Shown here: positions 19,287 through 40,023 of the stretch, piece by piece
How the letters are laid out: each line of letters starts with the position of its first letter
Position numbering within the stretch: position 1 is the stretch's first letter
From: Dehalococcoidia bacterium
GTDB taxonomy: Bacteria; Chloroflexota; Dehalococcoidia; UBA2979
Direction of reading: 5' to 3'
Length of the DNA: 64,000 nucleotides
Assembly (NCBI GenBank): GCA_963667465.2
Contig: CAXXDN010000002.1
Location: forward strand, 1,760,001 to 1,824,000
Made by a program: the position numbers and the translations under genes
Notes under the pieces: generated by a model
Seen by the model: the letters and a program-made list of their open reading frames with translations, nothing else
Told to the model about the DNA's origin: nothing
Database searches by the model: none

Positions 19287-19310
19287 AGCCAACCAGAACA
19301 GCCACAACGG

Positions 19311-21905
19311 ATGGACACGATGAGATTCAATCCTCTGCGCCCGCTCTTCGGCGCGCCTGATCCGAGGCCACCGGTGCTGCTCGCGGTGACGCCGCCGCGC
19401 ACGGGTGAGCGCACCCTGCTTGGCATCGAGAACCTGCTCCAGTCGATCGCAGTGCCCGAGCCGTTCTCGCTCGAACTCGCCGGCGACACCGACGGCGTCA
19501 CGCTCATGGCGCGCTGCATCGACAAGGAGGTGGTGCGCGGCCAGATCGCCGCCCACTACCCGCAGGCGCGCATCCACGAGGTGCCGGCCGACGAGGACCC
19601 GCTGCGCCTCGGCGAGGACGAGCAGGCGTGGTCGATGACCTTGCGCGCGAGCGGCCCCGAGTACGTGCCGCTGCGCGTCTTCCGCGACGACGACCTGCTC
19701 GACCCCGGCTCCGACCCGCTGCTCGCGTTGATCGGCGCGCTCTCGGCGTTGCGCCCGGGCGAGCGCGTCGTGGCGAGGCTGCTGCTGCGCTCGCTCGGAC
19801 CGGACTGGTCGCAGGACCACCAGGAGAAGGCGCACCGCCGCCCACTCGATGAGCGGCGCGACCCCGCCTACAGCTACCAGACGCGGCCGCTGCAGACCGA
19901 CGGCGTGACGATGGCCGTCCTCGGCTCGATCGCCCTCGCCGCCTTCCGCGGCTATCTCTGGGTGCAGGCCGGTGAGCCGTGGAAGGCGATCGCGCTCGGC
20001 GCGGGCGTTGTCATCGGGCTCGCGGTGGCGGGCTGGGCGTGGCACCGCTGGAAGCGCTCGCGAGCGCGCGTCCACGATCCGCTGCTGATCCGCGAGAAGG
20101 TCTCGCGCATCGCCTTCGACGCCGAGTTGCAGGTGGTCGCCATCCTCCCGGGTGGAGAGGGCGGACAGGGGCAGCGCCGAGCCGCCGAGCTGCTCGGCCA
20201 GGTCGCTGCCGCCTACCGTCACTACGACCACCCCGCGGGCGCTCGCTTCGAGGTCGGCAAGGTGCGGGCGGGGCTGCCCACGCCCGAGGCGCTGCATCCC
20301 TCAGGGCCCGGCCTGTTCGGCAGCCGCAGCGTCCTCGGCGTTCGCGAGGTTGCCTCGCTGTGGCACCCGCCGGGCGCCGGCGACGAGACGCCGCTCGTCG
20401 AGCGCTCCGGTGCGAGGGTCCTGCTGCCCTCCGCCCGAGGCGTCCGTGGCGGCGCCCTCGTCGGCGAGACCACGGCGGGCAAGCCTCGCCCGATCCACTT
20501 CCCCGCCGACCTGCTGCACCGACACCACCTCTACGTGGCGCGCACCCGCATGGGGAAGTCGACGCTCATGCACCACCTCGTCACCCACAAGCTGGCGGAG
20601 AAGGCGGCCGGCCGCGACGGCGACGCGATCGTCGTCGTCGACCCGCACGCCGACCTCGTGGGCGGGATCCTTGAGCAGGTGCCGGAGTCGCTGGCCGACC
20701 GCGTGCGGCTGGTGGACCTCGGGGACGAGCGCGGCGCGCCCGGCATCAACCTGCTCGACACGCGCATCTTCGCCGACCGCGACCGCACGGCCGACTCGGT
20801 CGTGCGCGTGGCGAAGGGCCTTTGGGAGCAGTGGGGACCGAGGATGCAGTCGATCCTCGAGCAGACCGTGAAGACGCTGCACGAGGCCAACGCCCACCCC
20901 GACACGGCGGCCGAGGAGCAGCACACGATCCTCGATGGGCTGCGGCTGCTCTCGGACGACGGGTTCCGCTCCCTCGTGCTGGAGCGGGTGAGCGACCCAT
21001 TCCTGCTCGACTGGTGGGCGCGCGACTTCGGCGGCTGGCGCCGCGAGTACCGTGCCGAGGCGCTCGCGCCCGTGCAGACGCGCCTCTCCTACTACGCCTC
21101 CTCGAAGCGGGCGCGCGCCATCCTCGGCCAGCCCCGCTCCACCATCGACCTGCGGCGCACGATCCTCGACGGCGGCGTGCTGCTCGTCTCCACTGCCCAG
21201 GGCACGGCCGGGCGCGACGTCGCGGCCCTGGTAGGCGCGTCGCTGCTCAACCTCGTCGACTCGGTGATCCGTGAGCAAGGAGGCCTGCCGCCCGAACGGC
21301 GGCGCGGGGCGCTCGTCGTGGTCGACGAGATGCAGTCGATGCCGGGCGTCGACTACGAGTCGATGCTGTCGGAGCTGGGGAAGTTCGGGGCCTCGTTCGT
21401 GCTCGCCACGCAGAGCCTCGCCAAGCTCGCCGACCTCTCGCTCACGATGCGCGACACCGTGCTCGCCAATGTCGGCTGCCTCGCCATCTTCCAGGTCGCC
21501 GGCAACGACGCCCGGCAGCTCGTCTGGGAGTTGGGCAAGGACCGCATCTCCGAGGAGGACATCGTCTCGCTGCCCGTGCACCACTGCTACGTGCGGGCCA
21601 CCGTCGGCTCGGAGCGGATGCCGACGTTCTCGATGATGGTGCGCAAGCCCGAGCCGGGGAGTGCTGAGACCGCCGCCCGCATCCGCGCCGCTGCGTCCTC
21701 CTACGTGTTGACCTCCGAGGAGATCGAGGCGCGACAGGCGGAGGGCCGCAGGCGCGTCGAGGAGTTCCGCGCCGGTGCCGAGGCCCTGCGCCAGGCAGAC
21801 GCCGAGCCGAAGAAGACGCGCGCATCGCGCGGATCGGCCTGCGCGAAGCAGCGCAGCAAGCACCTCCAACGGCCGAACCGAGGCAAGGGGCAGCCTGAAC
21901 AGTGA
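19311..21905 (+). CDS. Type IV coupling protein (VirD4/TraD/TrwB-like)
   Basis: 2 TM helices, ARTRMGKS Walker A, VVVDPHAD, VVVDEMQ Walker B, KFGASFVLATQ. Confidence 0.9.
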   Translation: MDTMRFNPLRPLFGAPDPRPPVLLAVTPPRTGERTLLGIENLLQSIAVPEPFSLELAGDTDGVTLMARCIDKEVVRGQIAAHYPQARIHEVPADEDPLRLGEDEQAWSMTLRASGPEYVPLRVFRDDDLLDPGSDPLLALIGALSALRPGERVVARLLLRSLGPDWSQDHQEKAHRRPLDERRDPAYSYQTRPLQTDGVTMAVLGSIALAAFRGYLWVQAGEPWKAIALGAGVVIGLAVAGWAWHRWKRSRARVHDPLLIREKVSRIAFDAELQVVAILPGGEGGQGQRRAAELLGQVAAAYRHYDHPAGARFEVGKVRAGLPTPEALHPSGPGLFGSRSVLGVREVASLWHPPGAGDETPLVERSGARVLLPSARGVRGGALVGETTAGKPRPIHFPADLLHRHHLYVARTRMGKSTLMHHLVTHKLAEKAAGRDGDAIVVVDPHADLVGGILEQVPESLADRVRLVDLGDERGAPGINLLDTRIFADRDRTADSVVRVAKGLWEQWGPRMQSILEQTVKTLHEANAHPDTAAEEQHTILDGLRLLSDDGFRSLVLERVSDPFLLDWWARDFGGWRREYRAEALAPVQTRLSYYASSKRARAILGQPRSTIDLRRTILDGGVLLVSTAQGTAGRDVAALVGASLLNLVDSVIREQGGLPPERRRGALVVVDEMQSMPGVDYESMLSELGKFGASFVLATQSLAKLADLSLTMRDTVLANVGCLAIFQVAGNDARQLVWELGKDRISEEDIVSLPVHHCYVRATVGSERMPTFSMMVRKPEPGSAETAARIRAAASSYVLTSEEIEARQAEGRRRVEEFRAGAEALRQADAEPKKTRASRGSACAKQRSKHLQRPNRGKGQPEQ

Positions 21906-23533
21906 GGCCGGAGCGCGACCTGCTGCGGCTGCTCGCCGCAATGCCCTTCCTCGACCGGCTGGAGATGGTCGCTGTCTCCGGCTGGTCGAGGGGTGCGGTC
22001 TACGCGAGCATCGAGGCGATCGAGAAGGCAGGGCTGGCTATCTCCGTGCCACACGCCTCGGAGCTCATCCCCTCGACGCGCCGCTACTGCCTCACGGCTG
22101 CCGGTCTCCGCCGCCTCGCCCGCGAGGAGGACGTGATCTTTGACGATCTGCTCCGGCTGCATCCCGTCTCGGAGCAGTGGCGGCGCATCCTCCTCCAGCG
22201 GCTCGACGCGCTCGCCGTCGTGTACCGCCTCGCCGCGGCGGTCTCGGACATCGCCTACCCGATCCGCTTCCGCTGGTACCGAGCCATGCCCATGGATGCC
22301 GCCATCGCACTCCAAGACGGACGCACCGTGGCCGTCGTCCGGCAGGGCCACACGGCCGACCGCACGGCCTTTGCCAAGCGCCTCTGGAGGCTGCGCGAGG
22401 GACCGCGGCTCGGTGCGTTTCTGCTCCTCATGCCCGACGAGGTGCGCCTGCGCCACACCGCCCGCTTGATGGCTGCCGCGCCCTCGAGCACCTTCCTCGC
22501 TCAGGAGCGCGATGTCGTCTCCGCTGGAGCGGGCTCACGCGTCTGGCGCACGCCGTCGGGCTCGCCTCCCCTCGCGCTCGACGAGGTCCTGTCGCACGCC
22601 GCTTGGGGAGGCGCGTGGCCCGAGGAGCGCCCGCTCAAGCGAGCCTCGCTGCCGCCGTTGCTCCCCCACCCGGGCGGGCGCGACACTCCCGACTGGCTCC
22701 TCCCCAGCGCGATCGGACCCGCCTCGAAACGCACTCTCGACCTGGTCGGCGACTGGCCCTGGATCACGCCGCATGACCTCGGAGGACTGCTCGGCGTCTC
22801 CGACCGACGAGTCTCGCAACTCGTGCTTCCACTCGCGGACGCCGGGCTCGTGACTCGCGGCGGCGGCGGCCGCCTTGCCCTCAGCGACCGCGCGCTCGCC
22901 CTGCTCGCCCGCCGCGACCGCGCTGCCGTGGGTCTGGCACGCAGACGCTGGAGCGCCGAGCCTTCGGACCCGAACGGCCCGCTCGCCTGGCGGAACATCT
23001 CCGGCAGGCGCATCCGCCAGCTGCTGCGCCACCTGGAACACACAGCGGCCGTCCACGGCTTCGTCGCTGCGCTGGCAACGCAGGCCCGCGAGCGGGGCTG
23101 GGAGGTCGTCCGGCTCGACCCGCCGCACCGGGCATCCCGCTACTTTCGCCACGACGACAGGCTCCACTCCGTCCACCCCGACGCCTTCGGCATCCTGCGT
23201 CGCGGGGACGAGACCTGGCCGTTCTTCCTCGAGTGGGAGCGACGCGCCGTCCGCCCCGTCACGATGGCCGCCCGCCTCGCCCCCTACCTGCGCTACTACG
23301 CTTCGGCGCGGCCCACCGACGACCACGGTGCGCGTCCCGCAGTCCTCGTCGTCTTCGAGGACGAGCTAGCGGCCGCGCACTTTCTGCGCGTGTCACGGGG
23401 CGAAGGGAACCGCGCCGGGGTCGAGGTGCCGTTGTGGGTCTCCCACGAGCCGGTGTTGCGGAGCGAGGGACCCCTGGGGAGGGCTTGGCTCGGCTCAGGC
23501 GATAGCTCCCAGCCCTTCCCTTCGGCGGCGTGA
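21902..23533 (+). CDS. Replication-relaxation (Replic_Relax) family putative relaxase
   Basis: wHTH followed by HLEHTAAV...HPDAFG...FFLEWER; last gene of the operon, directly after the coupling protein. Confidence 0.8.
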   Translation: MRPERDLLRLLAAMPFLDRLEMVAVSGWSRGAVYASIEAIEKAGLAISVPHASELIPSTRRYCLTAAGLRRLAREEDVIFDDLLRLHPVSEQWRRILLQRLDALAVVYRLAAAVSDIAYPIRFRWYRAMPMDAAIALQDGRTVAVVRQGHTADRTAFAKRLWRLREGPRLGAFLLLMPDEVRLRHTARLMAAAPSSTFLAQERDVVSAGAGSRVWRTPSGSPPLALDEVLSHAAWGGAWPEERPLKRASLPPLLPHPGGRDTPDWLLPSAIGPASKRTLDLVGDWPWITPHDLGGLLGVSDRRVSQLVLPLADAGLVTRGGGGRLALSDRALALLARRDRAAVGLARRRWSAEPSDPNGPLAWRNISGRRIRQLLRHLEHTAAVHGFVAALATQARERGWEVVRLDPPHRASRYFRHDDRLHSVHPDAFGILRRGDETWPFFLEWERRAVRPVTMAARLAPYLRYYASARPTDDHGARPAVLVVFEDELAAAHFLRVSRGEGNRAGVEVPLWVSHEPVLRSEGPLGRAWLGSGDSSQPFPSAA

Positions 23534-25487: not shown

Positions 25488-28400
25488 TTAGTTGGGACCG
25501 AAGACAGTGAAGTCCAGGGACTCGGACAGTTTCCTGCCATCCCTCGTGCAGATGGCACCCTGGGCCGCACAGTCCGTCGTGACCGGCAATTCGACGGTTA
25601 CTGTACCGTTGGAGTCAGGCACGACAGTGATTTCCCAGCGGATGCTAGCCGGACGTTCCAGGCGCCGAGCCTTCGTCACCGCACCGTTGGTTACGGTGAA
25701 GGCGGAGTCACGCAGGGTCCGGTAGCTCACGCCAAAGTCTTCGCTGAACTTCAACTCGAAGACGAAGGCATTCTGTCCACCATGGGACGAAGGCATATTC
25801 GCGAAGATCGCCGTAAGGCGGGGCTTCGCCACAGCAGCAGTAGGCGTGCTGGTTAGCTCCTCGTCGTAACCTGCGTCGTCGGTGAAGCTCACCTTCACCT
25901 TGAGGTTCTTACCCTGGTCGGCGCCGACGAGGGTGTAGCTGTTGCTCGTGGCCCCTGAGATGTTCGAGTCATCCGTGCCGTCGTTCCGTATCCACTGGTA
26001 GGTGTACGAGACGTTGGTCAGTCCGTCGGCGTCGGATATACCTGACGTGTCCACCGTCAGCGTCCCGGCCACCTGAGCCGTGCCGCTGATGGCAACGGTC
26101 CCAGTGGCCGGCGAATTGGGCCGAGCCGCCACAGATGAGGTCGCTGCGCTGGTCAGTTCCTCGTCGTTGTCGGCATCGTCGGTGAAGCTCACCCTCACCT
26201 TGACGGTCTTGCCCCGGTCGGCGTCGACGAGGGTGTAGCTGCTGCTCGCGGCCCCTGAGATGTCCGAGTCGTCGGTGCTGCCGTTCCGTATCCACTGGTA
26301 CTCGTAGGACACGTTGGTCAGGCCGTCGGCGTCGGAGATCCCGGAAGTGTCCGCGGTCAGGGTCTGACCGACCTGGGCAGTTCCGGTGATCGTCGGAGTT
26401 CCCGTCGCCGCACTGTTCGCTTGTTGTCGCTGTACGGCGAGGGAAACTGCTTCGGTCGCCTCACTGGTCAGGGTCTCGCTGTGTCCCGCGTCGTCGGTGA
26501 AACTCACCTTCACCTTGATGCTATCGCCCTCGTCGGCAGCCAGAATGGTGTAGGTAGACCCCGTGGCGTTCTGGATGCCTGTGTCGGAAGCTCCATCATT
26601 CGCAATCCACTGGTAGGCGTAGGACACGTTGGTCAGGCCGTCGGCGTCGGAGATCCCGGAGATGTTGGCCGTCAACGTCTGCCCCACCTTGGCGGTCCCG
26701 CTGATCGTCACCGCTCCCGTGGGCGCACGGTTGGCCGCCGCCACCGTGAAGAAGACGGTCAGCGTTCCAAGCTGGTCGCCGCCCAGCCTTCTCTCCGAGT
26801 AGGCCGTGGCCGTCAGGGTGTAGCTGCCCACCGGCAGGGACTGGCCGTTGAGCGCGCCCTCTCCTCCATCCCCGTACAGGGAGTAGGGGGTGGTGCCCTC
26901 GGTCTGGTCGACCGACTTCCCTCCGGACAGTTGCAGCCGGACGCTGCCGATTGCAGCTCCCGACTCTATATCGACCCGGATGCCGTAGCTGCCGTTGGCC
27001 GGGTCGTCCAGGGTCAGGGTCCCGCCGTCACTGAGAGTGCCCAGTACCGTCTGGGGCCGGCCGGATGTATCAACTACGGTGAAACCGGTCAGGGGGTTGG
27101 TTGCTGCGGCAGCAACCGCCGCCGTCGCCACACTGGTCAGCTCCTCGTCGTTGCCAGCATCGTCGGTGAAGTTCACCTTCACCTTGATGGTTTTGCCCTC
27201 GTCAGCATCGACAAGGGTGTAGGTCGATGCTGACGCGCCGGAAATGTCCGTGTCCGTCGATCCATCGTTGCGGATCCACTGGTACTCGTAAGACACGTTG
27301 GTCAGACCGTCGTCGTCGGAGATACCGGACGTGTCCGCCGTCAGTGTCTGGCCGACCTGGGCGGTGCCGCCGATCGTCGGACTCCCGGTCGCACCCGTAG
27401 ATGCGGAACTCTCACGAATGCGGTACAGAGCAAGGGAAACCCTGTCCCCATAGTCCCAGTACAAGTTCTGATCCTCCCACCAGAGCAGTCTGGTGGAGCT
27501 GTACGACGAATGAGTAGCATCGCTTGAGTGAAGCTTGACGCCATCAACTTCTAGCCTGAATGTGAACGGCATCTCCTTGTCGAGGCCGATGTAGAACCAG
27601 CCAGAGGCCTCGATCAACTTGACCGTGTAAGTGGTGCCATCGGCGACAAAGCTGTCAGCGGTGAGCGAACCACTTTGATATCCGTCGAGATTGACGTACC
27701 CGAAGTCCTGGTACACATCTGCCGTCGCCATCGTCGCAGCCCAGACCGGAGTCCAAGCGACCATTGCGGTCGCGGCGCTGGTCAGCTGCTCGTCGTTGTC
27801 AGCATCGTCGGTGTAGCTCACCAGCACGCTGATGACCGAACCGATGTCCGACTCTTTGAGTGTGTAGGTCGAAGCAGTCGCGCCGCTGATCTCAGACGTG
27901 GTGGTGCCGTCGCTACTGATCCACTGGTAGCTGAAGATTGCGTCAACCATGCCGTCCGGGTCAGAAATCGTAGAAGTGTCGACTCTCAGGGTCTCACCGA
28001 CCTCCGCCGTCCCGGAGATCAGAGCGTACTTCACGACCTCAGTGGAACTGCTGGTCAGGGTCTCTTCGTAGCCGGCATCGTCGGTGAAGGTCACTCGCAA
28101 CTTGATGTGGTTGCCCTCATCGGCTGCCTGCAGCGAGTACGTATCGTTGCTTTCGCCGGCGATGTCTGTGTCGTCGGTACCGTCACTTCTGATCCACTGG
28201 TACATAAACGTCGCGTTGTCGATACCATCGGCGTCGACAACCTTTGACACCTCGGCGCTCAGTGTCTGAGCCACGTGAGCGGAGCCCACGATATTCGGCG
28301 CCCCACTTGCTGGCCTGTTAGGCCTACGAGCGACCGCGCTCGTCTCGACGCTGGTCAGTTCTTCGTCGTGGTTCGCATCGTCGGTAAAGCTTACCTTTAC

Positions 28401-30648
28401 CTTGATGTACTGGCCTTCGTCCGCCTCAACGAGCGAGTAACTGCGAGCAGTTGCGCCGGCGATTTCTGAATCCTCGCTACCGTCGTTCCGGATCCATTGG
28501 TAACTGAAGGTCGCATTGGTCATACCGTTGGCGTCCGACATCCCCGAGGATTCTGCCGTCAATGTCTCACCAACACGTGCGGTACCACTGATAGTCGGAG
28601 CGCCTGCCGCAGACACGTTGGAGTCCTTGATCAGCCCGGTTGCCGTGCCAACCACGAAGGCTGCGCCAGACGGATTGGAAAGCGTCAATGTTACGGTCTC
28701 ATCACCCTCAACGACGTCGTCATCTTTCAGCTGCACCAACACCACTTTCTCGGTGTCGCCCGGTTCGAAGATGAGTGTCCCGCTGTCAGCGACGTAGTCA
28801 GCTCCCGCCGTTGCAGTGCCATCTGAGGTCGTGTATTCGACCGATACCTGTTCAGATGCTGCGGGGCGCAACATGACCGCAAAAGCCAGCTGTTCGGTGG
28901 CTCCTTCAGGTGCGGTTTCACCCTGCACCCTCACACCCGTGTACTGAGGAGTATACGTTGCCACCCTATAGGTGGAGCGATAGCAGCTACCGCCCCTATA
29001 GTCCGTTACGTGGAACAACGCTTTATCGACGTACACGGGCCAACCGTCAAGCATGCTCGCCCGGCGAGAAGAAGTGACCTCACGCAGGTGTGCTTCCTTG
29101 TTGCTAAGTTGGACATCATATGTGAGTGCAGTTGTTCCCTGTGAGGCCCACGCAGTGTAATTGTGAGTTGTGGAACTGAAGGTAGGGCTGAAGGAAGTCA
29201 GGCTTCCTCCCACCGCTGTCACCTCAAGGCCTTCGGCTTGCGTGTATTGGAAGCCATCGATGCACGTTGTAGCTGCGACGAAACCGGTAAGCGAACTGGT
29301 ATACGGACCTGAACGGTTGTTTCGCTCGTCCGTGAGCCACACCTGAACCCTGAGCTTGTGGCTTTGGTCTTCTAGCTTTACGACATACGATTTGCCGAAC
29401 CCGTCGTTGACGTCCACAATAGCTCCGGTGTCGGCATCCTGACGCTGCCATTGGTAGTCGTAGGTGTAGACGGGATTGCCGATGTTGCCATTACCCTTGT
29501 CGTTCTTGGGCTGGTTTCTGTCATCGGGATTGGACAGGTTGCTGACTCCTGCAGTCAGAGTCTTGGCCACCTGCGCACTGCCGCTGATGCTGGGTTTGTT
29601 GTTTGGATTTCCGATAATCGATTTGCCCACGGGAGGTGGAGTAGTCCTCTCCTCGCCCTTGATCTGAATCATGGCAACCCAGCCTCGGTTAAGGATCCAT
29701 CGATTGCCATAGTAAGCGCTGTAAAGGTAATTTTGGTTCTCTAGACTCCATGATGAGTCGTTCGTCGGGTCTTCGTTCCCTGATCTCGTCTGGGCTCGCC
29801 GAAGTATTCCATACTCCCGCTGGGGGAAGAACGAAGTGGGTCTCTGCCCGACTTCCACCCAGTATGTGGTGTTGGCTTTCAGCGCGACCCCTTCGCTCGG
29901 AGCTGTCCAGGTATTGAGTGCCCCAAGTCTGATGTCCGAGGAATGGACCCTGAAGCTTGATGGATTGACCATCGTGGCGATGATCCTGCCCGGTGTGTTG
30001 CCATTGTTGTTTTCCCGGATCAACATCTCATACCAGTACGGGTCAAAGGTTCCACCCCCTGGAGTGCCACCAAGCAGCGTTGAAATGGTGGTGATGTCGT
30101 AGCCGTCGGCGTGGTCGCCGGTCGTGAAGCGCTGCGCGATTCGGGCCGCATTGATGTTTTCAGGATTCTGCAACCAGTTGCTGACGAGCGTGTCGGTGTT
30201 GTCGTCGTCGGCTACGTGGACCCTCATAGTCTGTTGTCTGTTGTTGAAGCCGCCGCCGTTAAGGGTCAGGGTGACCTCTTTGCGCTCATCGTTACTATCG
30301 GAGTCGGTGACCGGTGTCACCGTAACGGTCTGAGTGTCGCTATAGTTTGTGGTTGTGAAGGTCCGGGTGGCCGGTGACACGGTGACGGCTCCGGTATCGT
30401 TGGAGCGGATGGTCATGGTGACGTTGCCCGTGGGAGCGTTTCGGAGCGCAATGTTAAACGAAGCGCTACTTCCCCCCCTCGGAGAGCAAGATGAACTGCG
30501 GGTCGATCTCTAGGTCACTTGTCTGGGCTTGAATTGGATTGTCCGGGCCGCTTAGCCAGACCGTGAGCGCGATGAGCACGACCAAAGTAGTGGTCACGGC
30601 CCTACGGCTTCTGCGTGCCAAGGCTCGCATGTCTCTTGAACTGCTCAT
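25488..30648 (-). CDS. Large adhesin-like surface protein (8 Ig-like repeats, Calx-beta, cadherin-like domain), frameshifted after its signal peptide
   Basis: ORF 25488..30416 has 8 repeats of type ISGTAQVGQTLTADTSGISDADG...YQW and Calx-beta YTTSDGTATAGADY...EGDET. The signal-peptide ORF 30466..30648 fuses in frame if the G7 tract (30472..30478) is G6. Confidence 0.85.
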
Positions 30649-30705: not shown

Positions 30706-31191
30706 TCATGCATCGGTAGTCCCGCGACATCCCGCGGGCAGTGCATGACGCTGGGGTGGTACGTCTGTGGCCAGGGCCCGGGCTCGCTGCTGAACCATCT
30801 CGTCCGGGACCCCGAAGTGCTCGGCGATCTCCCACGAATCGACGAGACCCGCGGCTCGCGCCTCTTCAGCGTCGACGAGTAGCCCGTACGCAAAGTCCTC
30901 GGCTTCTCGCTCGTAGCGTTTGGCAAGGACCGCGTGATCGCGCAGGAGGAGGTGGTTACCTCGATGCAGAAGCCGATGCGCGATGGCGTGGGCGATGACC
31001 CACCGTCGCCACTCAGGTTCCAATCGCTCGGCAACGACAACGATGCCGTCCACTTGCAACTCGCTGAGGACTTCGAGCGGCCACGGCTGCACTTCCAGCC
31101 CAAGGCCATTGGCCACCGCTTCAGCATCAACACGACCCTCCAGGCCCAGTTCCTGCCGCAGCGTGGAGCCTCGCTGCTGAGCCCGATTCAT
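30706..31191 (-). CDS. ImmA/IrrE-family protein, copy 2 (HAIAH)
   Basis: Collinear with copy 1 from MNRAQQRG to AEHFGVPDE. Confidence 0.85.
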   Translation of the reverse strand: MNRAQQRGSTLRQELGLEGRVDAEAVANGLGLEVQPWPLEVLSELQVDGIVVVAERLEPEWRRWVIAHAIAHRLLHRGNHLLLRDHAVLAKRYEREAEDFAYGLLVDAEEARAAGLVDSWEIAEHFGVPDEMVQQRARALATDVPPQRHALPAGCRGTTDA

Positions 31192-31356
31192 CGTTTTGTG
31201 GTGCCTCTACCCCGCTACGCCCTTGCAGCACCGGCATCAGGGCGAAGCCGCCGTGAGGCTGTGAAGATGGCTCGATGAAGCCCGGAGTCGCGTGAGTGTG
31301 CTGGGGGTGTGCAATTTCGTCGGGGTCGTGAGGGGCGGCTCTCGGAGCAGCCGTGT

Positions 31357-31373
31357 ATAAGTGCAGTTATCCA
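31357..31373. repeat. Left 17-bp inverted repeat, putative tyrosine-recombinase core site
   Basis: ATAAGTGCAGTTATCCA, exact reverse complement of 32779..32795. Confidence 0.85.
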
Positions 31374-31544
31374 CCCCTTAGCTCTCTAGTCGCGATGACT
31401 GGCGGACGTGACGCGTGCCCCACGGGACCACGAGTGCTGCCTACCAAGCGGAAGCCACCCGAGCCGCTCAGGGGGATAGCCCGGTACGGCGTGGAGAGCG
31501 AGCCAGGGGGAGCCTGCCCCCTCGCTCTGGGACCTGCGGTTGAG

Positions 31545-32693
31545 ATGCACCGGTTCTGGGGAGTTGGGAACCTCGCGGATAGTGCTGCAGCCCTGCGTTC
31601 GGCGGCTGACTCCGGCTGGGCAGAGTCTCAAGCTGCGCCCCCCGACCTGAGCGCCGGTCCCACGGGGGCAGATGGGGTCGGGGTGGTTGGTGAGACGCTG
31701 CCGGACGGCGTAGCCGTGAGCGTGCCTGACCCCCTCTCAGAGGGTGCCGCTCAGTTGACGGAGTCCGATGTCGTCAACCTTGCTGGGCTCCTCGACCACG
31801 AGGTCGCCAGGAATACCGTGAGGAGCTATCGGAGCCAGTGGGGGAGCTTCCTCGCGTGGGCGATGCGACGGGGTGTTCCCGCCCTTCCTGCTGAGCCGGC
31901 GCACGTCGCTGCTTACCTTGCGGAGCGCATCGAGGAACTCGGGCACAAGCCGGCAACGCTGCGAGCGGCAGCCGCAGCCATCGGGTTCGTCCACCGGGCG
32001 GCAGGGTTCGACAACCCATGCGTTCGGCCGGAGGTGAAGAGGACGCTCAGGAGCGCCACGCGAAAAGCCGGCAGGGCACAGAAGCAGGCCAAGGGGCTGA
32101 CAGCAGACGGGCTCGCCGCGATCCGGTCGACAGCCTGCGAGCCGCGAGCCGGCAGGGGCGGGCGGCCGGAGAGTGCGGAGACTGCGGAGTCCCGAGGCAG
32201 GCTGGACATCGCGGTAATCAGCCTCATGCGCGACGCCATGCTGAGGGTCTCAGAGGCCGCGGCCCTGACCTGGCTGGACATAGAAGAGGAACCTGACGGG
32301 ACGGGGCGCCTCCTGATTCGGCGCTCCAAGACGGATCCTGAGGGTTCCGGTGTTGTCGCGTTCGTGTCCGCCCCGACCATGGAGGCGCTCGGATCGATAC
32401 GAAACGGTGCCCCGACCAGCGCCAACATATTCGGGCTGCGGCCAAACCAGATGTCGAAGCGCATCAAGAAAGCCGCGCAGGCGGCGGGGCTCGGGGACGG
32501 CTTCAGCGGTCACTCGCCACGGGTGGGGATGGCACAGGACCTTGTGCGGGCTGGCGTCGAGTTGCCCGGCCTCATGACGGCCGGGCGGTGGCGCACACCC
32601 GCCATGCCAGCGCGCTATACCCGCAATGAGACCGCCAGCAGGGGCGCCATAGCGCAGTTCTACCGCACCTACCCCCTGGCCAGCCGAGCGTGA
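31545..32693 (+). CDS. Cre-like tyrosine recombinase (start uncertain, possibly as late as TTG 31755)
   Basis: N-terminal ARNTVRSYRSQWGSFLAW; catalytic residues MLRVSE (R), RSKTD (K), HSPR, GRW, RY. Confidence 0.92.
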   Translation: MHRFWGVGNLADSAAALRSAADSGWAESQAAPPDLSAGPTGADGVGVVGETLPDGVAVSVPDPLSEGAAQLTESDVVNLAGLLDHEVARNTVRSYRSQWGSFLAWAMRRGVPALPAEPAHVAAYLAERIEELGHKPATLRAAAAAIGFVHRAAGFDNPCVRPEVKRTLRSATRKAGRAQKQAKGLTADGLAAIRSTACEPRAGRGGRPESAETAESRGRLDIAVISLMRDAMLRVSEAAALTWLDIEEEPDGTGRLLIRRSKTDPEGSGVVAFVSAPTMEALGSIRNGAPTSANIFGLRPNQMSKRIKKAAQAAGLGDGFSGHSPRVGMAQDLVRAGVELPGLMTAGRWRTPAMPARYTRNETASRGAIAQFYRTYPLASRA

Positions 32694-32778
32694 GCGAGGA
32701 CCAGGAGGAGTTTGCAGAGTATCAGTAGCCCGTAGTAGGCTCCGCCGGAGCAACCATCAATGCCGAGGAGTCAAGCGA

Positions 32779-32795
32779 TGGATAACTGCACTTAT
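32779..32795. repeat. Right 17-bp inverted repeat, putative tyrosine-recombinase core site
   Basis: TGGATAACTGCACTTAT. Confidence 0.85.
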
Positions 32796-33093
32796 TCTCG
32801 CTTTGATTGTGAAGAACTGAACGACTAACCGCGTTCTTTAGTGACTGAAGCGGCCCCATCTTATCCTGCTCCTCGCGAAGCTGGTCGAAGACCACATAGC
32901 TGCCTACTTGTATTGTACTCTTTGAGCTATTGTGTGGCAGTAATCGGACTGTAAGGAAACTGCATCAGCGCGACCGCATTTGACTCGACCTTGATGTAGC
33001 GCCGAATCCCGAGGATCCACCTCGGGGGTGCTGACTTACTGGCCCCGTGCGGGACCGTGCCTCTATCCAGGGAGGGTCCCTACCGGCCGCGAT

Positions 33094-33462
33094 TCATCGC
33101 TCGCTGCGCAGTCTCTCGCGGTGTTGAGCCCGAACGAACTTGATGAAGTTGTGAATCGACTCGACATCCTCAGGCGGGAGGCCGGTAACCGCGTCGCGGA
33201 ATGAGACCTCCGCGGCTTTGAGCAACTCGGACTCGACGACGGATTGCCCCAGGAGATGCTCGGGGCTCGTCTCGCAGTGGAACGCCACCTCGACGAGGTG
33301 TTCGTGCTGGGGCTTCATGCGCCCCGCCTCCCACGCCCAGACCGTGTGCGAAGCAACGCCGACGAGCTCACCGAGTTGGCGCTGGGTCAGGCCTACTCCC
33401 TTGCGCGCCTCACGGATGCGCGCCCCAAGGTCCTTCCAGCGGTATCCGCGATCCCTGGTCAT
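33094..33462 (-). CDS. XRE-family repressor (ImmR/CI-like)
   Basis: LGARIREARKGVGLTQRQLGELVGVASHTVWAWEAGRMKP. Confidence 0.9.
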   Translation of the reverse strand: MTRDRGYRWKDLGARIREARKGVGLTQRQLGELVGVASHTVWAWEAGRMKPQHEHLVEVAFHCETSPEHLLGQSVVESELLKAAEVSFRDAVTGLPPEDVESIHNFIKFVRAQHRERLRSER

Positions 33463-33527
33463 GCGTTGAGGGCCCCTGTCCTTCGCCCGCCGAGGGAGAT
33501 TGCGCCAACAGGATAGAACGGGTGTTC

Positions 33528-33562
33528 TTGACATGCACTGTGGTCACGCATAGAGTACCACA
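33528..33562 (+). promoter_or_regulatory. Sigma70-type promoter with overlapping inverted repeat
   Basis: TTGACA (33528..33533), 17 bp, TAGAGT (33551..33556). TGTGGT (33539..33544) and ACCACA (33557..33562) flank the -10. Confidence 0.7.
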
Positions 33563-34502: not shown

Positions 34503-37500
34503 TCAGGCTCCACTGAAGACGAACGCCGCCCAGAAGGATGGTGCGCTGTACCGTGCCGACCCATTCGAGACGCTCGACGACCGGCGGCCACGGGGCAGCG
34601 CGCGCAGTGGCGCTCGCATTGATTCATAAGCATCGAGCTCAGCTTCGTCCGCATCGCGCAGCCAGAGCTGAGCTTCGCGGAGCGCGGCCGCTGGTGGCCT
34701 CTTCGCGAGGAAGAGCTCCTCGTAGAACCTGGATACGATGAGGGCAGTTGCGAAGTCGTCCACCTCCCAGAGCGTCGAGATGACGCCTGCAGCCCCCGCG
34801 GCGACGAAAGCCGTCGCGAGGCCGAGAGCTTCATCCACCGCTTCGTACTCTTGGACCACACCTGTCTCGCACGCGGATGCGACCACGAGTCGGGCAGGGA
34901 TCTCCAGGCCGGCAACTTCGAGGGCGGAGAGTTCTTCCTCCCCTGAGAGCGACAGGGCCGCCGAGAGCAGTGGGTCCAAGAGTCCGCCTCCGCCGTGGCA
35001 GGCGAAGTGGACGTGCGTCGCTGGCGGCAGTACCTCCAACACCCGCTCCTTCGTCGCCTCTGCTCCCTTTAGCACCAGACTCTGTGCCGCCGGCACGAGT
35101 GCTTCAACGAGCTCGATCTCGAGTTCAGCTCCGTTGAGCGGGCGTGAGTGAGGGAGGGGGTTAGCGATCCCAACAAAACGAATCGGATCACTATCCTGCC
35201 GAGATGCGCGTTGCATGCAGGCGAGTTGGAGCCGAGCCGACGGGGCGAACGTCACATCGAAGTCGTCGATCAAGCACCGCTGACTCCCGGCAGGATCCCT
35301 CCAGGCAATAGCATGTAGCGGCATCAGCCCGAGGAGTCCCGCAGGGACCAGCGTGACACCGGACGCGCCGCGACCAGCCAGCGAGTCTGCGAGAGGGCGA
35401 AGCAGTTGTTCACCGATGAGGGGCGAGAGGGCCGCGATGGCTGTATCGAGATGCTCCGGCGCGTGCGCTTGGGCGGCCAGATATGCAGCCGAGCCCACGT
35501 GGGTCCCGTCCGCATCAAGACCCATCATCGCCATGCGAACGATCGCCTGCGAGTCACAATCAGGCGCGTGGATCGCCTCGACCTCTATGCCGGTATCGTC
35601 AGTTCTGTCCACGATGATCGCGAACGAGCCTCCGGGTGCGGAGCCTAGGTAGACGAGCGGCCGTTGGGGCTGTGCAACCTTGCCGATCCCATCGAGAGTC
35701 GGAGGATCAAGAGCCTTCTCGAAGGTTGGGATCTGTCGCAAAGCGGAGCGGATCCGCGCGAACCGCTCCGAGCGATCCGACGCTGAGCGGTCCTCCAAGC
35801 CGAGGATGTCCGCCCGGAACGAAGCGATCGCATTCTCAAGTTCGACACGCAGGCCCGGATCGAGGTGGGACAGCGCACCGAGATCGATGCTTTCGGCCAA
35901 CGTAAGCAAGCCGAGCTCCCTGGTTCGCCCGAGTTCCAGCGCCGTCACGGCCTTCTCTAGACGACCCGCGCGCACCAGTGCGTGTGCAGCGAAGCGAAAA
36001 TCTGTCGTGCTCTTGCTATGCTCCGACATCCGATCGTCGGCGTGCGAGTGGGTGGAGATCGCTGATGCTGCAGCCTCAATGAGGTGCTGTGCAGCATCTG
36101 CAGCGAGATCCACGTCGTCTCGCTCCTCTGCCAGCGCAATGAGGCGCCGACTGGCCTCGCGGGCCTCTGTCGGCCCCATGTCTGCCGACAAGGCGGTGAG
36201 TGCCATCTTCAGGGCTTCGATCGCGCCATCTTGATCGGCGCGTGCCGAGCGGATCTTTCCGATGGTGAACCATGCATGGCCAAAGCGGAGCGGCGACGCC
36301 CCCACCGGACTGAGTCGCACCGACTCCATGGCGCTCGCCTCGGCCCGATCTAGAAGCTCCGATTGATGAGCAGGGGCGATGCCAGCCAATTGCGAGAGCT
36401 GGTACTGCTGGGCGGCAAGATTGTGCTCGGCAGAAGCGAGGAGTGGGGCTTGGCTGGCAGAGCGCGCCCCGTCGCGCGCATTCGCGGTGTGACGGATGGC
36501 CCTACGCAGATTGGCCCCGCGATCGCCGGAGTCGGCACGCGCGTAGGCCATCCCAAGATGCAGTTGGGTGAAGGCCCAATTTCCGGGATCCCGCTCGCGT
36601 GACCGGTGATTCAGAGCAAGTTCAAGGTGTTCACGGGCCTGATCGACGTCACCTGCATCTCCGCGATTTAGAAGGAGGAGCGCGAGATTGGTCTGAGCCA
36701 TGGCCCAACTGTCGCGGTCGCCCGACTGCCATGACAGATCGATCGCGTCCCTGAGCAGTGTGATGCTCTGGGTGCGGCTCCATGCCGGATCGCCGCGCGG
36801 ACGGATCCCGAATGCCATGCTCAAGTTCATCAGAGTGGGGACTCGACGCTGCGGGTGATCGACGTCCGGGTGCGCGTCCAGGATCGAAATCACCATCCTG
36901 AGTAACTCGATGGCGCGTTCGATGTTCTGCTCGCGGTCTGCTCCCTCGCCCTCAAGGAGAGCCGCGGCTGTCCTGGCGGCTACTTCCGCCCGCCGCTCTG
37001 GATAGGTGCCCGACGGCAAGAAGTCCAGTAGATCTAGCCCGGCCTGAGCCAGTGCCTTCGGATCCGCTCCGCGCTTCGCATCCTCGAACGCGCGCTGCCG
37101 CGGAACGACCTCCTCATCCCAGAATCTGCGGATGACCGATTCGCGCACGGACCAGGCACCACTCAAGTCTCCCCGTCGGACGAGCTGCGCCGTTCGCAGC
37201 ATCGACTCGGCGAATCTCCGCCTGTCTTCAGTCGTGGCGCTTTCCAGATGCTGTCCGAGGCGCTGTTCCGCTTCGTCAGTCGCGATCTCCGGCCACCGCT
37301 CTACCACTTCGCGAAGTTGCTCCTCGCTCCCGACGAGCGCGAGGTCCTCAAGCCCACTCTCGATCCGCTGTCGCCTCTGATTGACCTCGATCGCCATCAG
37401 CAGTCTTCGATAAGCGGGTTCATGAGGAGCGGCGTCGCCTGCACCTGCTCTTAGCGCCTCGGCGTCGGCATCTATGTCCAGACCCACACCCGCCTCGAGC

Positions 37501-37886
37501 TCATCGAACGTAACCACTACGGGGGGGCCGGGGACTTCGCGAACGGCATCGCCCAACTCGTGTCGGACAACGGCGACTATATCGGCAAGGCCCTCGATTG
37601 GATCTAGATCGTCGTCGCTCGCGCGTGCCGCGATTAGAGGAGCTGCCTTCGCGAGGCGGAGCACAAGCAGCGGCATGGAGCGGTTCAGTGGCCGATCGCA
37701 ACTCGAGCACTTGGACTCGATCAGGTCCGGAAGTCGCTCAACCAGATCTGGGCGCTCAACGGCGTCGATCGCGAGCCACGTGACCTGCGAGGTCGCTTCG
37801 CCGCACCTAGCGCACTTCCAGTCCACGGTCCTGGCTTGGGATATCGGCATTTGGAACAGTCTCGGTTGCCGACGCAGCCCCGGCAC
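34503..37886 (-). CDS. CHAT (caspase-like) protease with N-terminal CpXC-like zinc domain and TPR-like helices (alternative start ATG 37850)
   Basis: CARC...ERPDL...CSSC; WAMAQTNLA/WAFTQLHLG repeats; HFACHG and SACETG dyad; STLWEVDD; FWAAF. Confidence 0.92.
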   Translation of the reverse strand: MPGLRRQPRLFQMPISQARTVDWKCARCGEATSQVTWLAIDAVERPDLVERLPDLIESKCSSCDRPLNRSMPLLVLRLAKAAPLIAARASDDDLDPIEGLADIVAVVRHELGDAVREVPGPPVVVTFDELEAGVGLDIDADAEALRAGAGDAAPHEPAYRRLLMAIEVNQRRQRIESGLEDLALVGSEEQLREVVERWPEIATDEAEQRLGQHLESATTEDRRRFAESMLRTAQLVRRGDLSGAWSVRESVIRRFWDEEVVPRQRAFEDAKRGADPKALAQAGLDLLDFLPSGTYPERRAEVAARTAAALLEGEGADREQNIERAIELLRMVISILDAHPDVDHPQRRVPTLMNLSMAFGIRPRGDPAWSRTQSITLLRDAIDLSWQSGDRDSWAMAQTNLALLLLNRGDAGDVDQAREHLELALNHRSRERDPGNWAFTQLHLGMAYARADSGDRGANLRRAIRHTANARDGARSASQAPLLASAEHNLAAQQYQLSQLAGIAPAHQSELLDRAEASAMESVRLSPVGASPLRFGHAWFTIGKIRSARADQDGAIEALKMALTALSADMGPTEAREASRRLIALAEERDDVDLAADAAQHLIEAAASAISTHSHADDRMSEHSKSTTDFRFAAHALVRAGRLEKAVTALELGRTRELGLLTLAESIDLGALSHLDPGLRVELENAIASFRADILGLEDRSASDRSERFARIRSALRQIPTFEKALDPPTLDGIGKVAQPQRPLVYLGSAPGGSFAIIVDRTDDTGIEVEAIHAPDCDSQAIVRMAMMGLDADGTHVGSAAYLAAQAHAPEHLDTAIAALSPLIGEQLLRPLADSLAGRGASGVTLVPAGLLGLMPLHAIAWRDPAGSQRCLIDDFDVTFAPSARLQLACMQRASRQDSDPIRFVGIANPLPHSRPLNGAELEIELVEALVPAAQSLVLKGAEATKERVLEVLPPATHVHFACHGGGGLLDPLLSAALSLSGEEELSALEVAGLEIPARLVVASACETGVVQEYEAVDEALGLATAFVAAGAAGVISTLWEVDDFATALIVSRFYEELFLAKRPPAAALREAQLWLRDADEAELDAYESMRAPLRALPRGRRSSSVSNGSARYSAPSFWAAFVFSGA

Positions 37887-38445: not shown

Positions 38446-40023
38446 ATGATGAAGGCGATTATCTACTCGCGCGTTTCGACGGACGCGCAGGAGCGCGACG
38501 GAACTTCGCTCGACACCCAGGAGCGTGCCTGCGCGGAGTACGCAACCGGGCAAGGTTGGGAGGTCGTCCGCCGCATCCGCGACACGGACAGCGGCGCTCT
38601 CCTCGAACGCGAAGGACTGACCGAACTGCGTGAAGCGCTCCGGCATGGGACGGCCGATGTGATCGTCGCCTTCGCCGTCGATCGCCTCTCGCGTAGCCAG
38701 AATCACATCGGCATCCTGTTCGACGAGTTCGAGGGCGCGGGCGTCACCATGGCCTTCGTGACCGAGCGCTTCGAGGACACGGCGGTCGGACGCTTCATCC
38801 TTGCCGCGCGCGCCTTCATCGCTGAGGTCGAGCGCGAGAAGATCGCTGAGCGCACGATGCGCGGCAAGGAAGAGCGCGCTCGCAGCGGTCGCATTCCCCA
38901 GGCGACAGGTCGCGGGATGTACGGCTACTGCTACGACTCCGACACCGGCCGTCGCGTCATCAACGGCGATCAGGCCGCTGTGGTCCGTCGTGTCTTCGAG
39001 GACTTCGCCGGCGGCGCGTCGATCATCGGCATTACCAACGCGCTCAACGAGGCAGGGACCCTGAGCTTCACAGGGCGAGCATGGTCGGCCTGGACCGTGA
39101 AGAACATGCTGCGCAACCCAGGGTATGCCGGGCGAACGATCTTCAAGCGCACGAAGACGGGCCACCGGCGCGATCCACTCACCGGCAAGCGGCGTCGCAC
39201 GGTCGCGCTGAGGAACGAGTCGGAGTGGATCGAGGTGCCGGACGCGACACCGGCGGTCATCTCCGAGCAGTTGTTCGATGCGGTGCAGACCCGGCTCCTC
39301 GACCCGGAGCGGCGGCGCCAGGCACAGCGTAAGAACGATTATCCCCTCCGTGGCACCGTGCGTTGCTCACACTGCCACAGCGCGATGGTGGGCCAGACGT
39401 CGATGGGCAAGTACCGCTACTACCGCTGCCGGCGGGCCTACGCGGGTCCGCGCCACGACCGCTGTCCTGCGCGGTACGTCCGCGCAGGTGACCTCGAGCG
39501 TGCGGTGGCGCGCGAGCTCACCACGGTGCTCGCCTCGCCGGAGGTGGTGCTGGCCGAGCTGGAGCATGCGTCCTCAGACGACGCGCGCGATGATGACTTG
39601 AGCGCCGCCCAGCAACTCGTCGCGTCGCTCGACGATCAGCGACAGCGGCTGCTCAAGCTCTTCCAAATGGGCGAGGTCGATGAGGCGTACCTGCAGAAGG
39701 AACTCGAGACGATCCGCGTCCGACGCTCGCCGGCCGAGGCGACCATCGCTCGACTGAACGGCTCGGGCTCGACGCCCCGCATTCCGGCGAACCCCGACGA
39801 GTTCGCCGCCACATGTGAGGCGCTGCGGGAGCGCGTCGCGGAGGAAGTCAAGGCGGGTCGGCTCAATGAAGTCGCCGAGGCGATGCAGATCTCGATCACG
39901 ATCGCGCGAACCGGCGACGGAGCGTCAGGCGCGCTCGAGGGCGTGATCCCGCACGAAATCGGTAGATTTGGCGAGGATTTTTCTCACCACTGCACGAACA
40001 TCGGCATGACGACGTGGGTGTAG
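38446..40023 (+). CDS. Large serine recombinase (ICE integrase)
   Basis: IYSRVST catalytic Ser, VDRLSR, recombinase domain, CSHC...YYRC...C zinc ribbon, coiled coil; GGAGGTG RBS. Confidence 0.96.
   Translation: MMKAIIYSRVSTDAQERDGTSLDTQERACAEYATGQGWEVVRRIRDTDSGALLEREGLTELREALRHGTADVIVAFAVDRLSRSQNHIGILFDEFEGAGVTMAFVTERFEDTAVGRFILAARAFIAEVEREKIAERTMRGKEERARSGRIPQATGRGMYGYCYDSDTGRRVINGDQAAVVRRVFEDFAGGASIIGITNALNEAGTLSFTGRAWSAWTVKNMLRNPGYAGRTIFKRTKTGHRRDPLTGKRRRTVALRNESEWIEVPDATPAVISEQLFDAVQTRLLDPERRRQAQRKNDYPLRGTVRCSHCHSAMVGQTSMGKYRYYRCRRAYAGPRHDRCPARYVRAGDLERAVARELTTVLASPEVVLAELEHASSDDARDDDLSAAQQLVASLDDQRQRLLKLFQMGEVDEAYLQKELETIRVRRSPAEATIARLNGSGSTPRIPANPDEFAATCEALRERVAEEVKAGRLNEVAEAMQISITIARTGDGASGALEGVIPHEIGRFGEDFSHHCTNIGMTTWV

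Follow-up and report, generated by a model that had tools for sequence, protein, structure and literature searches.

A Cre-type recombinase gene between inverted lox-like sites: a candidate self-inverting module in a conjugative element of a Dehalococcoidia bacterium

A 64,000-nucleotide stretch from the genome of a Dehalococcoidia bacterium (GenBank assembly GCA_963667465.2, contig CAXXDN010000002.1, positions 1,760,001 to 1,824,000 of the forward strand; henceforth the window) contains a gene for a Cre-type tyrosine recombinase that is enclosed by two inverted sites resembling loxP. Following an analysis of this locus and its relatives, we conclude that the segment at 31348–32804 is probably a self-contained inversion module that was inserted at the junction between an XRE-type regulator gene and an ImmA-type peptidase gene of an integrative conjugative element (ICE), and that it may now act as a strongly biased switch. 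Judged from sequence comparison, there is good support for self-inversion in the family of related cassettes, and for the copy in the window this reading is plausible. To the original prediction, which had been made from the window alone, the present analysis adds evidence for both orientations, statistics of the site spacers, and a comparison with empty sites.

The module is marked by the 17-mer ATAAGTGCAGTTATCCA, which occurs at 31357–31373 on the plus strand and, with 0 mismatches, at 32779–32795 on the minus strand. Shuffling of the window gave an expected number of 0.01 matches to this sequence with up to three mismatches. The inverted repeat extends to 33 nt at 82% complementarity, and its 14-nt core was found at just these two sites in the entire 2.97-Mb assembly (93.6% complete), in which the 1.55-kb cassette stretch is single-copy. 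As the original prediction had stated, the perfect repeat surrounds the recombinase gene alone, this being the only long conserved gene between the two copies; in the manner of an inverton, the inverted repeats bound a segment that holds the cognate recombinase gene. Both copies have asymmetric 6-nt centres (GTGCAG at 31361–31366 on the left, CTGCAC at 32786–32791 on the right), and since the right centre is the complement of the left one, the two sites are truly opposite in orientation. The register of both sites was set by aligning sites from the family. On this basis, the left lox-like site spans 31348–31379 (plus strand), with an outer arm at 31348–31360, the overlap GTGCAG, and an inner arm at 31367–31379. 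The right site spans 32773–32804 (minus strand), with an inner arm at 32773–32785, the overlap CTGCAC (GTGCAG on the minus strand), and an outer arm at 32792–32804. Of the ATAA-N6-TTAT dyads that had been proposed initially, the asymmetric 6-nt spacer could be retained but not the 4-bp arms, the family consensus being a lox-like 13-6-13 site.

The recombinase gene (31353–32693, plus strand; stop codon at 32691–32693) gives a clear match to PF00589 (E 7.9e-11) and a weak match to PF02899 (E 0.004), which corresponds to a two-domain layout without an arm-binding domain. The frame is open from GTG 31353, with ATG 31395 and ATG 31545 as further possible starts, and the conserved core of the protein begins near 31740, at about residue 130. 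Residues R298, K326, H387, R390, W413, and Y422 (numbered from 31353) are invariant in 16 homologues and align to the Cre motifs LLRIAE, RTKT, GHSARVG, GGW, and NY. A profile built from these 16 homologues matches chains of phage P1 Cre, the best solved relative, with an E value of 1.8e-22 in an alignment that spans Cre residues 25–211 and 286–338, and matches XerD with just 1.4e-4. The core is preceded by a poorly conserved N-terminal extension of ~65–130 residues, and this extra stretch returned no family match and has little codon-position bias (143/159/179 differences at positions 1/2/3). Among four orthologues the core shows 591 synonymous and 419 non-synonymous codon changes, with 290/220/769 differences at codon positions 1/2/3. 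By these counts, the recombinase core is under purifying selection. Together, enzyme and sites carry the sequence hallmarks of Cre-type systems.

Relatives of this protein are widespread. Scoring of 8000 candidates gave 1403 matches at E ≤ 1e-3, at least 120 cluster representatives are 70–100% identical to the window protein, and 306 stretches in species-representative genomes encode relatives. The 79 loci that we examined from this last set come mostly from Dehalococcoidia and Acidimicrobiia (Candidatus Poriferisodalis), and also from Binatia, Nitrospirales, and Tepidiformaceae. A metagenome scan with the window protein found no relatives among 144 pattern matches; the sequencing runs in which the window's stretch occurs bear the label of a sponge metagenome or of a coded organism. 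The original prediction had suggested inspecting the repeats around homologous genes. In an exact-seed search, a flanking inverted repeat of like type was present in 61 of 84 loci, and several of the other 23 (for example L022, L041, L053, and L057) visibly have a mismatched repeat.

Site statistics were compiled from the 56 loci that were left after removing duplicates (L015, L016, and L082) and mis-anchored loci (L038 and L081). The sites of the family follow the consensus AAAGCGTGTATAA-N6-TTATACACGCTTT, which can be read as 13-6-13 or, in the register of loxP, as 12-8-12. Directly beside the overlap the arms are nearly invariant, with A at positions −2/−1 in 96–100% and TTAT at positions +1 to +4 in 100% of the loci. 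The 6-bp overlap occurs in 27 forms, and it is the same at both ends of the cassette in 55 of the 56 loci, compared to 97 of 1540 between-locus pairs. Position by position, the two sites of one element match to 98–100% in the centre and to 25–93% in the arms. Strand exchange by Cre-type enzymes requires identity within the overlap (the homology rule). Since strand exchange needs this identity, overlaps that are matched within each element are what recombination between the two sites of an element would be expected to produce. Palindromic overlaps, which would permit deletion of the segment, can be dismissed, as none of the 27 forms is palindromic. Among the seven genomes in which spacers could be read for at least two copies, five have overlaps that differ between the copies. 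One genome contains two cassettes ~1.37 Mb apart (L035 and L045) that are 96% identical over 1514 nt. Their overlaps are one base apart, with the alteration present at both ends of each copy (ATACAG versus ATGCAG), and the two cassettes stand in opposite orientation relative to a common 1.8-kb flank.

To what extent have such segments inverted? All loci were oriented by the recombinase gene and then compared all against all. This comparison yielded 38 locus pairs with homologous DNA directly outside the cassette, of which 24 have the same orientation, 12 are inverted with flanks both swapped and reversed, and 2 are ambiguous. A labelling with two states is consistent in all 13 groups. In a group from Dehalococcoidia, L023 is inverted relative to L021, L036, and L042 with both flanks swapped, the cassettes being 90–93% identical and the flanks matching over ~1300 and 177 nt at 87–90%. 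Likewise, in a second, independent group from Acidimicrobiia, L028 is inverted with both flanks swapped relative to L020 and L047. The arms of the sites were exchanged in the way that a crossover within the centre predicts: both sites of L036 are perfect dyads, the upstream one of arm type B-B′ and the downstream one of type A-A′, and L023 has A-B′ hybrids at both ends. Swapped flanks and exchanged arm types indicate that segment inversion has occurred repeatedly in this family by way of recombination in the overlap.

With regard to the lineage of the window, three further genomes of the same genus (L008, L009, and L010) contain a syntenic ImmA-cassette-XRE arrangement, all in the orientation of the window. 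The overlap is GTGCAG at both ends in the window, in L008, and in L009, and it is ATGGAG at both ends in L010. This concerted spacer change, the selection on the recombinase core, and the perfect sites are indirect indications that the sites in the window may still interact.

The neighbouring genes named in the original prediction (XRE, immA-like, and adhesin-like) were recovered by open reading frame (ORF) and domain searches, and all neighbours of the cassette are on the minus strand. To the left, a gene for an ImmA/IrrE-type M78 peptidase (30706–31191, minus strand; PF06114, E 6.3e-11) points away from the left site and starts at a distance of 166 nt from the repeat. Downstream on the same strand follows the gene for a 1642-aa surface/adhesin-like protein (25488–30416, minus strand) with Calx-beta, Ig-like, and PKD-like domains. 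To the right, an XRE-family helix-turn-helix (HTH) gene (33094–33534, minus strand; PF13560, E 3.9e-09) reads towards the cassette. The same-strand gene row that runs into XRE begins with a gene (34503–37886, minus strand) whose 1127-aa product ends in a CHAT (caspase-like) domain, and two small minus-strand ORFs without family lie between this gene and XRE. Genes of VirB4/TraC-like, coupling-protein-like, and relaxase-like type are located at 17010–23533, and a large serine recombinase gene (38446–40023) adjoins dnaN at the border of the element. The conjugation genes and the serine recombinase beside dnaN place the locus inside an ICE with its own integrase. We considered the cassette enzyme itself as the ICE integrase and rejected this assignment, because its gene is internal, its sites are inverted, and the large serine recombinase stands at the border by dnaN.

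In the mechanism that we propose for the inversion module, the Cre-type recombinase would bind the two lox-like sites by way of ~13-bp arms around the 6-bp overlap, and strand exchange within the matching asymmetric overlaps would invert the 1.4-kb segment. The outer arms would remain with the chromosome and the inner arms would move with the gene. In the present orientation, the recombinase is convergent with the XRE transcript and divergent from ImmA. From the geometry, the flipped recombinase gene would point the same way as XRE, ImmA, and the adhesin-like gene, and its frame would be linked to an external ribosome-binding site plus start codon that lie in the right flank. Such a flip is predicted to alter how ImmA and the adhesin-like gene are transcribed, how the recombinase itself is transcribed, or both, and could toggle ImmA, the adhesin-like gene, or ICE induction. 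Translational fusion to ImmA was discarded as a possible output, because in a by-eye reading the small inner frame that would be fused outward after a flip runs into a stop. In the Acidimicrobiia group, a ~1000-aa ResIII gene starts 27–39 nt outside one site in five loci, beside either end of the cassette. This distance leaves no room for a promoter of its own, which suggests that these ResIII neighbours are transcribed across the site from within the cassette. The arrangement in the window recurs at L072, where the cassette is convergent on two HTH genes beside a large serine recombinase.

About 100 nt outside one site, and one only, are conserved between distant members of the family. This flank is found on the 3′ side of the recombinase in 26 loci and on the 5′ side in 8, with 22 loci left unassigned, and its location mostly at the 3′ side points to a preferred orientation. 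In the window, the corresponding A+T-richer outer flank (flank F, 32805–32990, minus strand) lies outside the right site. It contains a sigma-70-like match that faces the cassette (32940→32912) and a Shine-Dalgarno-like GAGGAG followed by an ATG at 32859. From this ATG a 45-codon frame on the minus strand reads across the right site and stops at 32722. The frame crosses the right site as NKCSYP, and the recombinase frame crosses the left site as YKCSYP in the same register. After inversion, a start of the 32859 type would head a recombinase frame of 455–467 codons in all four orthologues (start plus Shine-Dalgarno-like motif at −68), and in the present orientation this external start yields 29–45-codon tails that are not conserved among the four. 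For the subgroup of the window only, we hypothesize that inversion fuses the external start to the recombinase frame; a stop just inside the site interrupts this frame in roughly half of the family members. The differences counted at codon positions 1/2/3 upstream of the core (46/34/44 and 143/159/179) give no clear coding signal for such a fusion. A terminator role for the flank was tried and abandoned: when the 125 nt beyond the site were folded for 18 loci, z values ranged from −3.1 to +1.7, with 17 of the 18 above −1, and a terminator scanner found no terminator.

Just past the conserved flank of L021, a degenerate paralogue of the recombinase (L021:6875–7702, minus strand) is convergent with the cassette gene and 46% identical over 265 aa; such paralogues are also present at L022, L036, L041, and L042. 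In the L021 copy the K-loop is missing, Asp replaces the catalytic His, and the sequence stops ahead of Trp and Tyr. This paralogue could be a dead copy, or it could serve as a DNA-binding partner.

Several observations weigh against a switch that operates in the window. No inverted form of this locus was seen in the four syntenic genomes (window included). Contigs of runs X3, X6, and X7 (depth figures 9–43) span the whole stretch in the window orientation with no joints, although contigs drop rare variants and low-frequency flipping is compatible with contigs of a single orientation; the fragmentary 3x cover of run X2 also has no joints in Logan contigs. The predicted self-inversion, and the comparison of orientations that had been suggested for it, have consequently met with a divided outcome: in the family, spacers are matched in 55 of 56 loci and homologous loci occur in both states, but the contigs and syntenic genomes for the window's own locus contain the window state only. 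The 55 of 56 matched overlaps are themselves to be read with the detection method in mind, which picked up only exact repeats of 10 nt or more and somewhat favours matched spacers. The sites in the window are more degenerate than the family consensus, their 8-bp arms matching at 7 of 8 positions in the left site and at 5 of 8 in the right, and the outer arms accordingly pair poorly with the inner arms as a dyad. A promoter scan identified no promoter-like site within the window cassette, all nearby matches lying outside, and scans of L020 and L029 gave 0 promoter-like sites. Finally, the 109 neighbouring ORFs are heterogeneous according to Pfam (ResIII 5, HTH_3 5, HTH_63 4, HTH_31 3, large serine recombinases 2, and fn3 2). 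A single partner gene for the family can be discounted, as no Pfam family dominates among these 109 ORFs.

The origin of the unit can be read from modules without a cassette. Two paralogous XRE-ImmA modules, L106 in the same genome (~48 kb before the window) and L107 in genome G001, are cassette-free at ~70% DNA identity, and in both of them the XRE stop overlaps the ImmA start codon. The genus contains many such modules of XRE plus ImmA. A 1.9-kb segment (31194–33089) that is missing from the paralogous modules comprises the cassette together with flanks of 163 bp (left) and ~295 bp (right). The 10-bp direct repeat CGATTCATCG stands at either end of this inserted segment (31184–31193 and 33090–33099; 10/10 match), and the junction motifs in L008 match at 7/10. 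A decayed copy of the first ImmA codons stands after the XRE stop. Because stop and start codons overlap in the paralogues and the junction motif stands on both sides, the unit appears to have come by insertion into a translationally coupled XRE-ImmA gene pair of the ICE. A second direct repeat, GTGCCTCTACCC / GTGCCTCTATCC, is located at 31201–31212 and 33057–33068, just within both ends of the inserted segment. In genome G014 the locus survives as decayed remnants on one contig, with the right site and the XRE module (L108) ~162 kb apart from ImmA, a left-site remnant, and recombinase fragments (L012).

An insertion relative to L106 and L107, with the junction motif on both sides, would also suit a cassette that is primarily a selfish mobile element akin to an insertion sequence (IS), with the tyrosine recombinase as its sole gene, the inverted repeats as its ends, and inversion as a side reaction. 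This reading was named as an alternative at the outset and gains some support from the finding that the cassette arrived with ~460 bp of flanks between XRE and ImmA. It would also agree with the patchy spread of the cassette, which is present in 6 of 41 related genomes and in 5 of 18 others of the genus, with proteins at least 70% identical across Dehalococcoidia, Acidimicrobiia, Binatia, and Nitrospirales, with the 2–4 copies in several genomes of the family, and with the similarity of L035 and L045 within one genome. We consider it unlikely nonetheless, because inverted directional overlaps yield inversion and not excision. Furthermore, a target-site duplication directly outside the terminal repeats, as in an IS, is not what the window contains, since the duplicated motif is set off from the inverted repeats by 163 and 295 bp. 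The conserved outer flank on one side means that the unit exceeds the repeat-bounded segment, and the homology between L035 and L045 likewise continues for 1.8 kb on one side. Orthologous positions have been kept through speciation (in the four syntenic genomes here, and in six plus three in the ResIII group), and the genome of the window has a single copy.

Two further explanations seem to us less probable again. The paired sites might form a platform for larger rearrangements or cassette exchange that shuffle the adjoining DNA, like recombinase-mediated cassette exchange between inverted lox sites. Several loci have the appearance of such events: the right flank of L072 reappears (98.4% over 4685 nt) at the opposite end of cassette L077, and its left flank (95.6% over 4706 nt) adjoins L081, ~70 kb from L077 in the same second genome; the two parts of the G014 locus are separated; and in the Acidimicrobiia group one flank is constant and the other variable. 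We nevertheless give this explanation a small chance, since copies in the same genome mostly differ in overlap, so that the homology rule should block cross-recombination, and since the window's own genome has these two sites only. The least probable is that the module in this lineage is a fixed relic, or performs another job such as resolving ICE multimers (as Cre does for P1), and no longer flips. The single orientation in all four syntenic genomes and in the contigs of three runs would fit a relic, as would the decayed remnants in G014. What speaks against it is the purifying selection on the recombinase core, the perfection of the sites over 17 bp, and the concerted spacer change at both ends in L010; resolution, moreover, needs one site per replicon that becomes a direct repeat after dimerisation, and not an inverted pair around a gene. 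We accordingly favour an inversion module with a strong orientation bias.

A more far-reaching proposal, which we put forward tentatively and with more doubt than conviction, is that the family constitutes a new class of portable flip-switches. Equipped with their own inverted lox-like sites and a conserved one-sided flank, these units would spread horizontally, insert at gene junctions (in the window, between the ICE repressor and its anti-repressor protease), and make the neighbouring genes phase-variable. The diversification of the overlap would permit several units to coexist without cross-recombination. In the subgroup of the window, the flipped state would gate the recombinase itself by way of the outside ribosome-binding site and start codon, so that the flipped state would reverse itself, which would explain the orientation bias.

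Most of what is known about site-specific inversion switches comes from gut bacteria and pathogens, where the recombinase is encoded outside a small promoter segment. The present family consists of Cre-type enzymes encoded within their own sites, and it is abundant in uncultured sponge-associated bacteria of several phyla. These cassettes adjoin regulators of ICEs, restriction-type helicases, and surface-protein genes. If they flip in populations, sponge symbionts would share a way to vary conjugation, defence, or surface properties. The family also represents a natural set of Cre-type enzyme/site pairs that differ in the 6-bp overlap, and these pairs are candidate orthogonal tools for genome engineering. 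The mobility of the unit poses a puzzle of its own, as it is bounded by inverted directional sites, which cannot excise the segment, and yet has been inserted at new places.

To our knowledge, the known Cre-type systems have one site near the recombinase gene and function in dimer resolution or circularisation of plasmids and phages. The nearest known systems are Cre/loxP of phage P1 and other Cre-type systems (Dre/rox, Vika/vox, Nigri/nox, and the YR series of PMC10250229), and the cassette enzyme has the R-K-H-R-W-Y catalytic set of Cre. The family site is a simple palindrome around a 6-bp asymmetric overlap, with arms that end in GTATA beside the crossover region; in the 12-8-12 reading, where A and T are fixed at either end of the spacer, its layout is that of loxP. 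PMC10250229 describes single palindromic sites near the recombinase gene, with half-sites of 13–15 bp on either side of an 8-bp spacer and with G(T)-A-T(G)-A as the motif adjoining the spacer; the family site shares this layout in the 12-8-12 reading. A full-text literature search, at the level of listings and abstracts, found no report in which inverted lox-like sites enclose a recombinase; the ~500 predicted recombinase/site pairs of PMC10250229 might include members of this family. Unlike Cre-type systems described so far, the cassette gene is enclosed by two inverted sites and resides in chromosomes and conjugative elements of uncultured sponge-associated bacteria. Unlike Cre, the cassette protein carries a poorly conserved N-terminal extension.

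In architecture the cassette resembles both Flp between the repeats of the yeast 2-micron plasmid and Hin in the H segment. In the Flp/FRT system, the recombinase gene lies between inverted copies of its target and the enzyme flips the intervening DNA. The cassette differs from this eukaryotic plasmid system, in which the repeats measure 599 bp, inversion serves copy-number amplification, and there is no family-wide diversification of the overlap. In the Hin/hix H segment of Salmonella (and similarly with Gin, Cin, and Pin), the recombinase gene is inside the inverted segment and a flip changes the transcription of a neighbour. Hin belongs to the serine invertases and depends on Fis and an enhancer, whereas the cassette enzyme is a tyrosine recombinase of the Cre type, and, unlike for Hin, the promoter scan of the cassette gave no internal promoter-like site. 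In the case of FimB/FimE with fimS, of RecV from C. difficile, and of the Bacteroides invertases, a tyrosine recombinase inverts a short segment between inverted repeats. The recombinase genes of these FimB/FimE-type systems lie outside a promoter segment of ~150–350 bp, and their repeats of 9–30 bp are without the lox-like 13-6-13 symmetry of the cassette sites, whereas in the cassette it is the gene itself that forms the invertible unit. How strongly fimE is expressed varies with the orientation of the segment, and this dependence would be paralleled by the proposed orientation-dependent start codon of the cassette recombinase.

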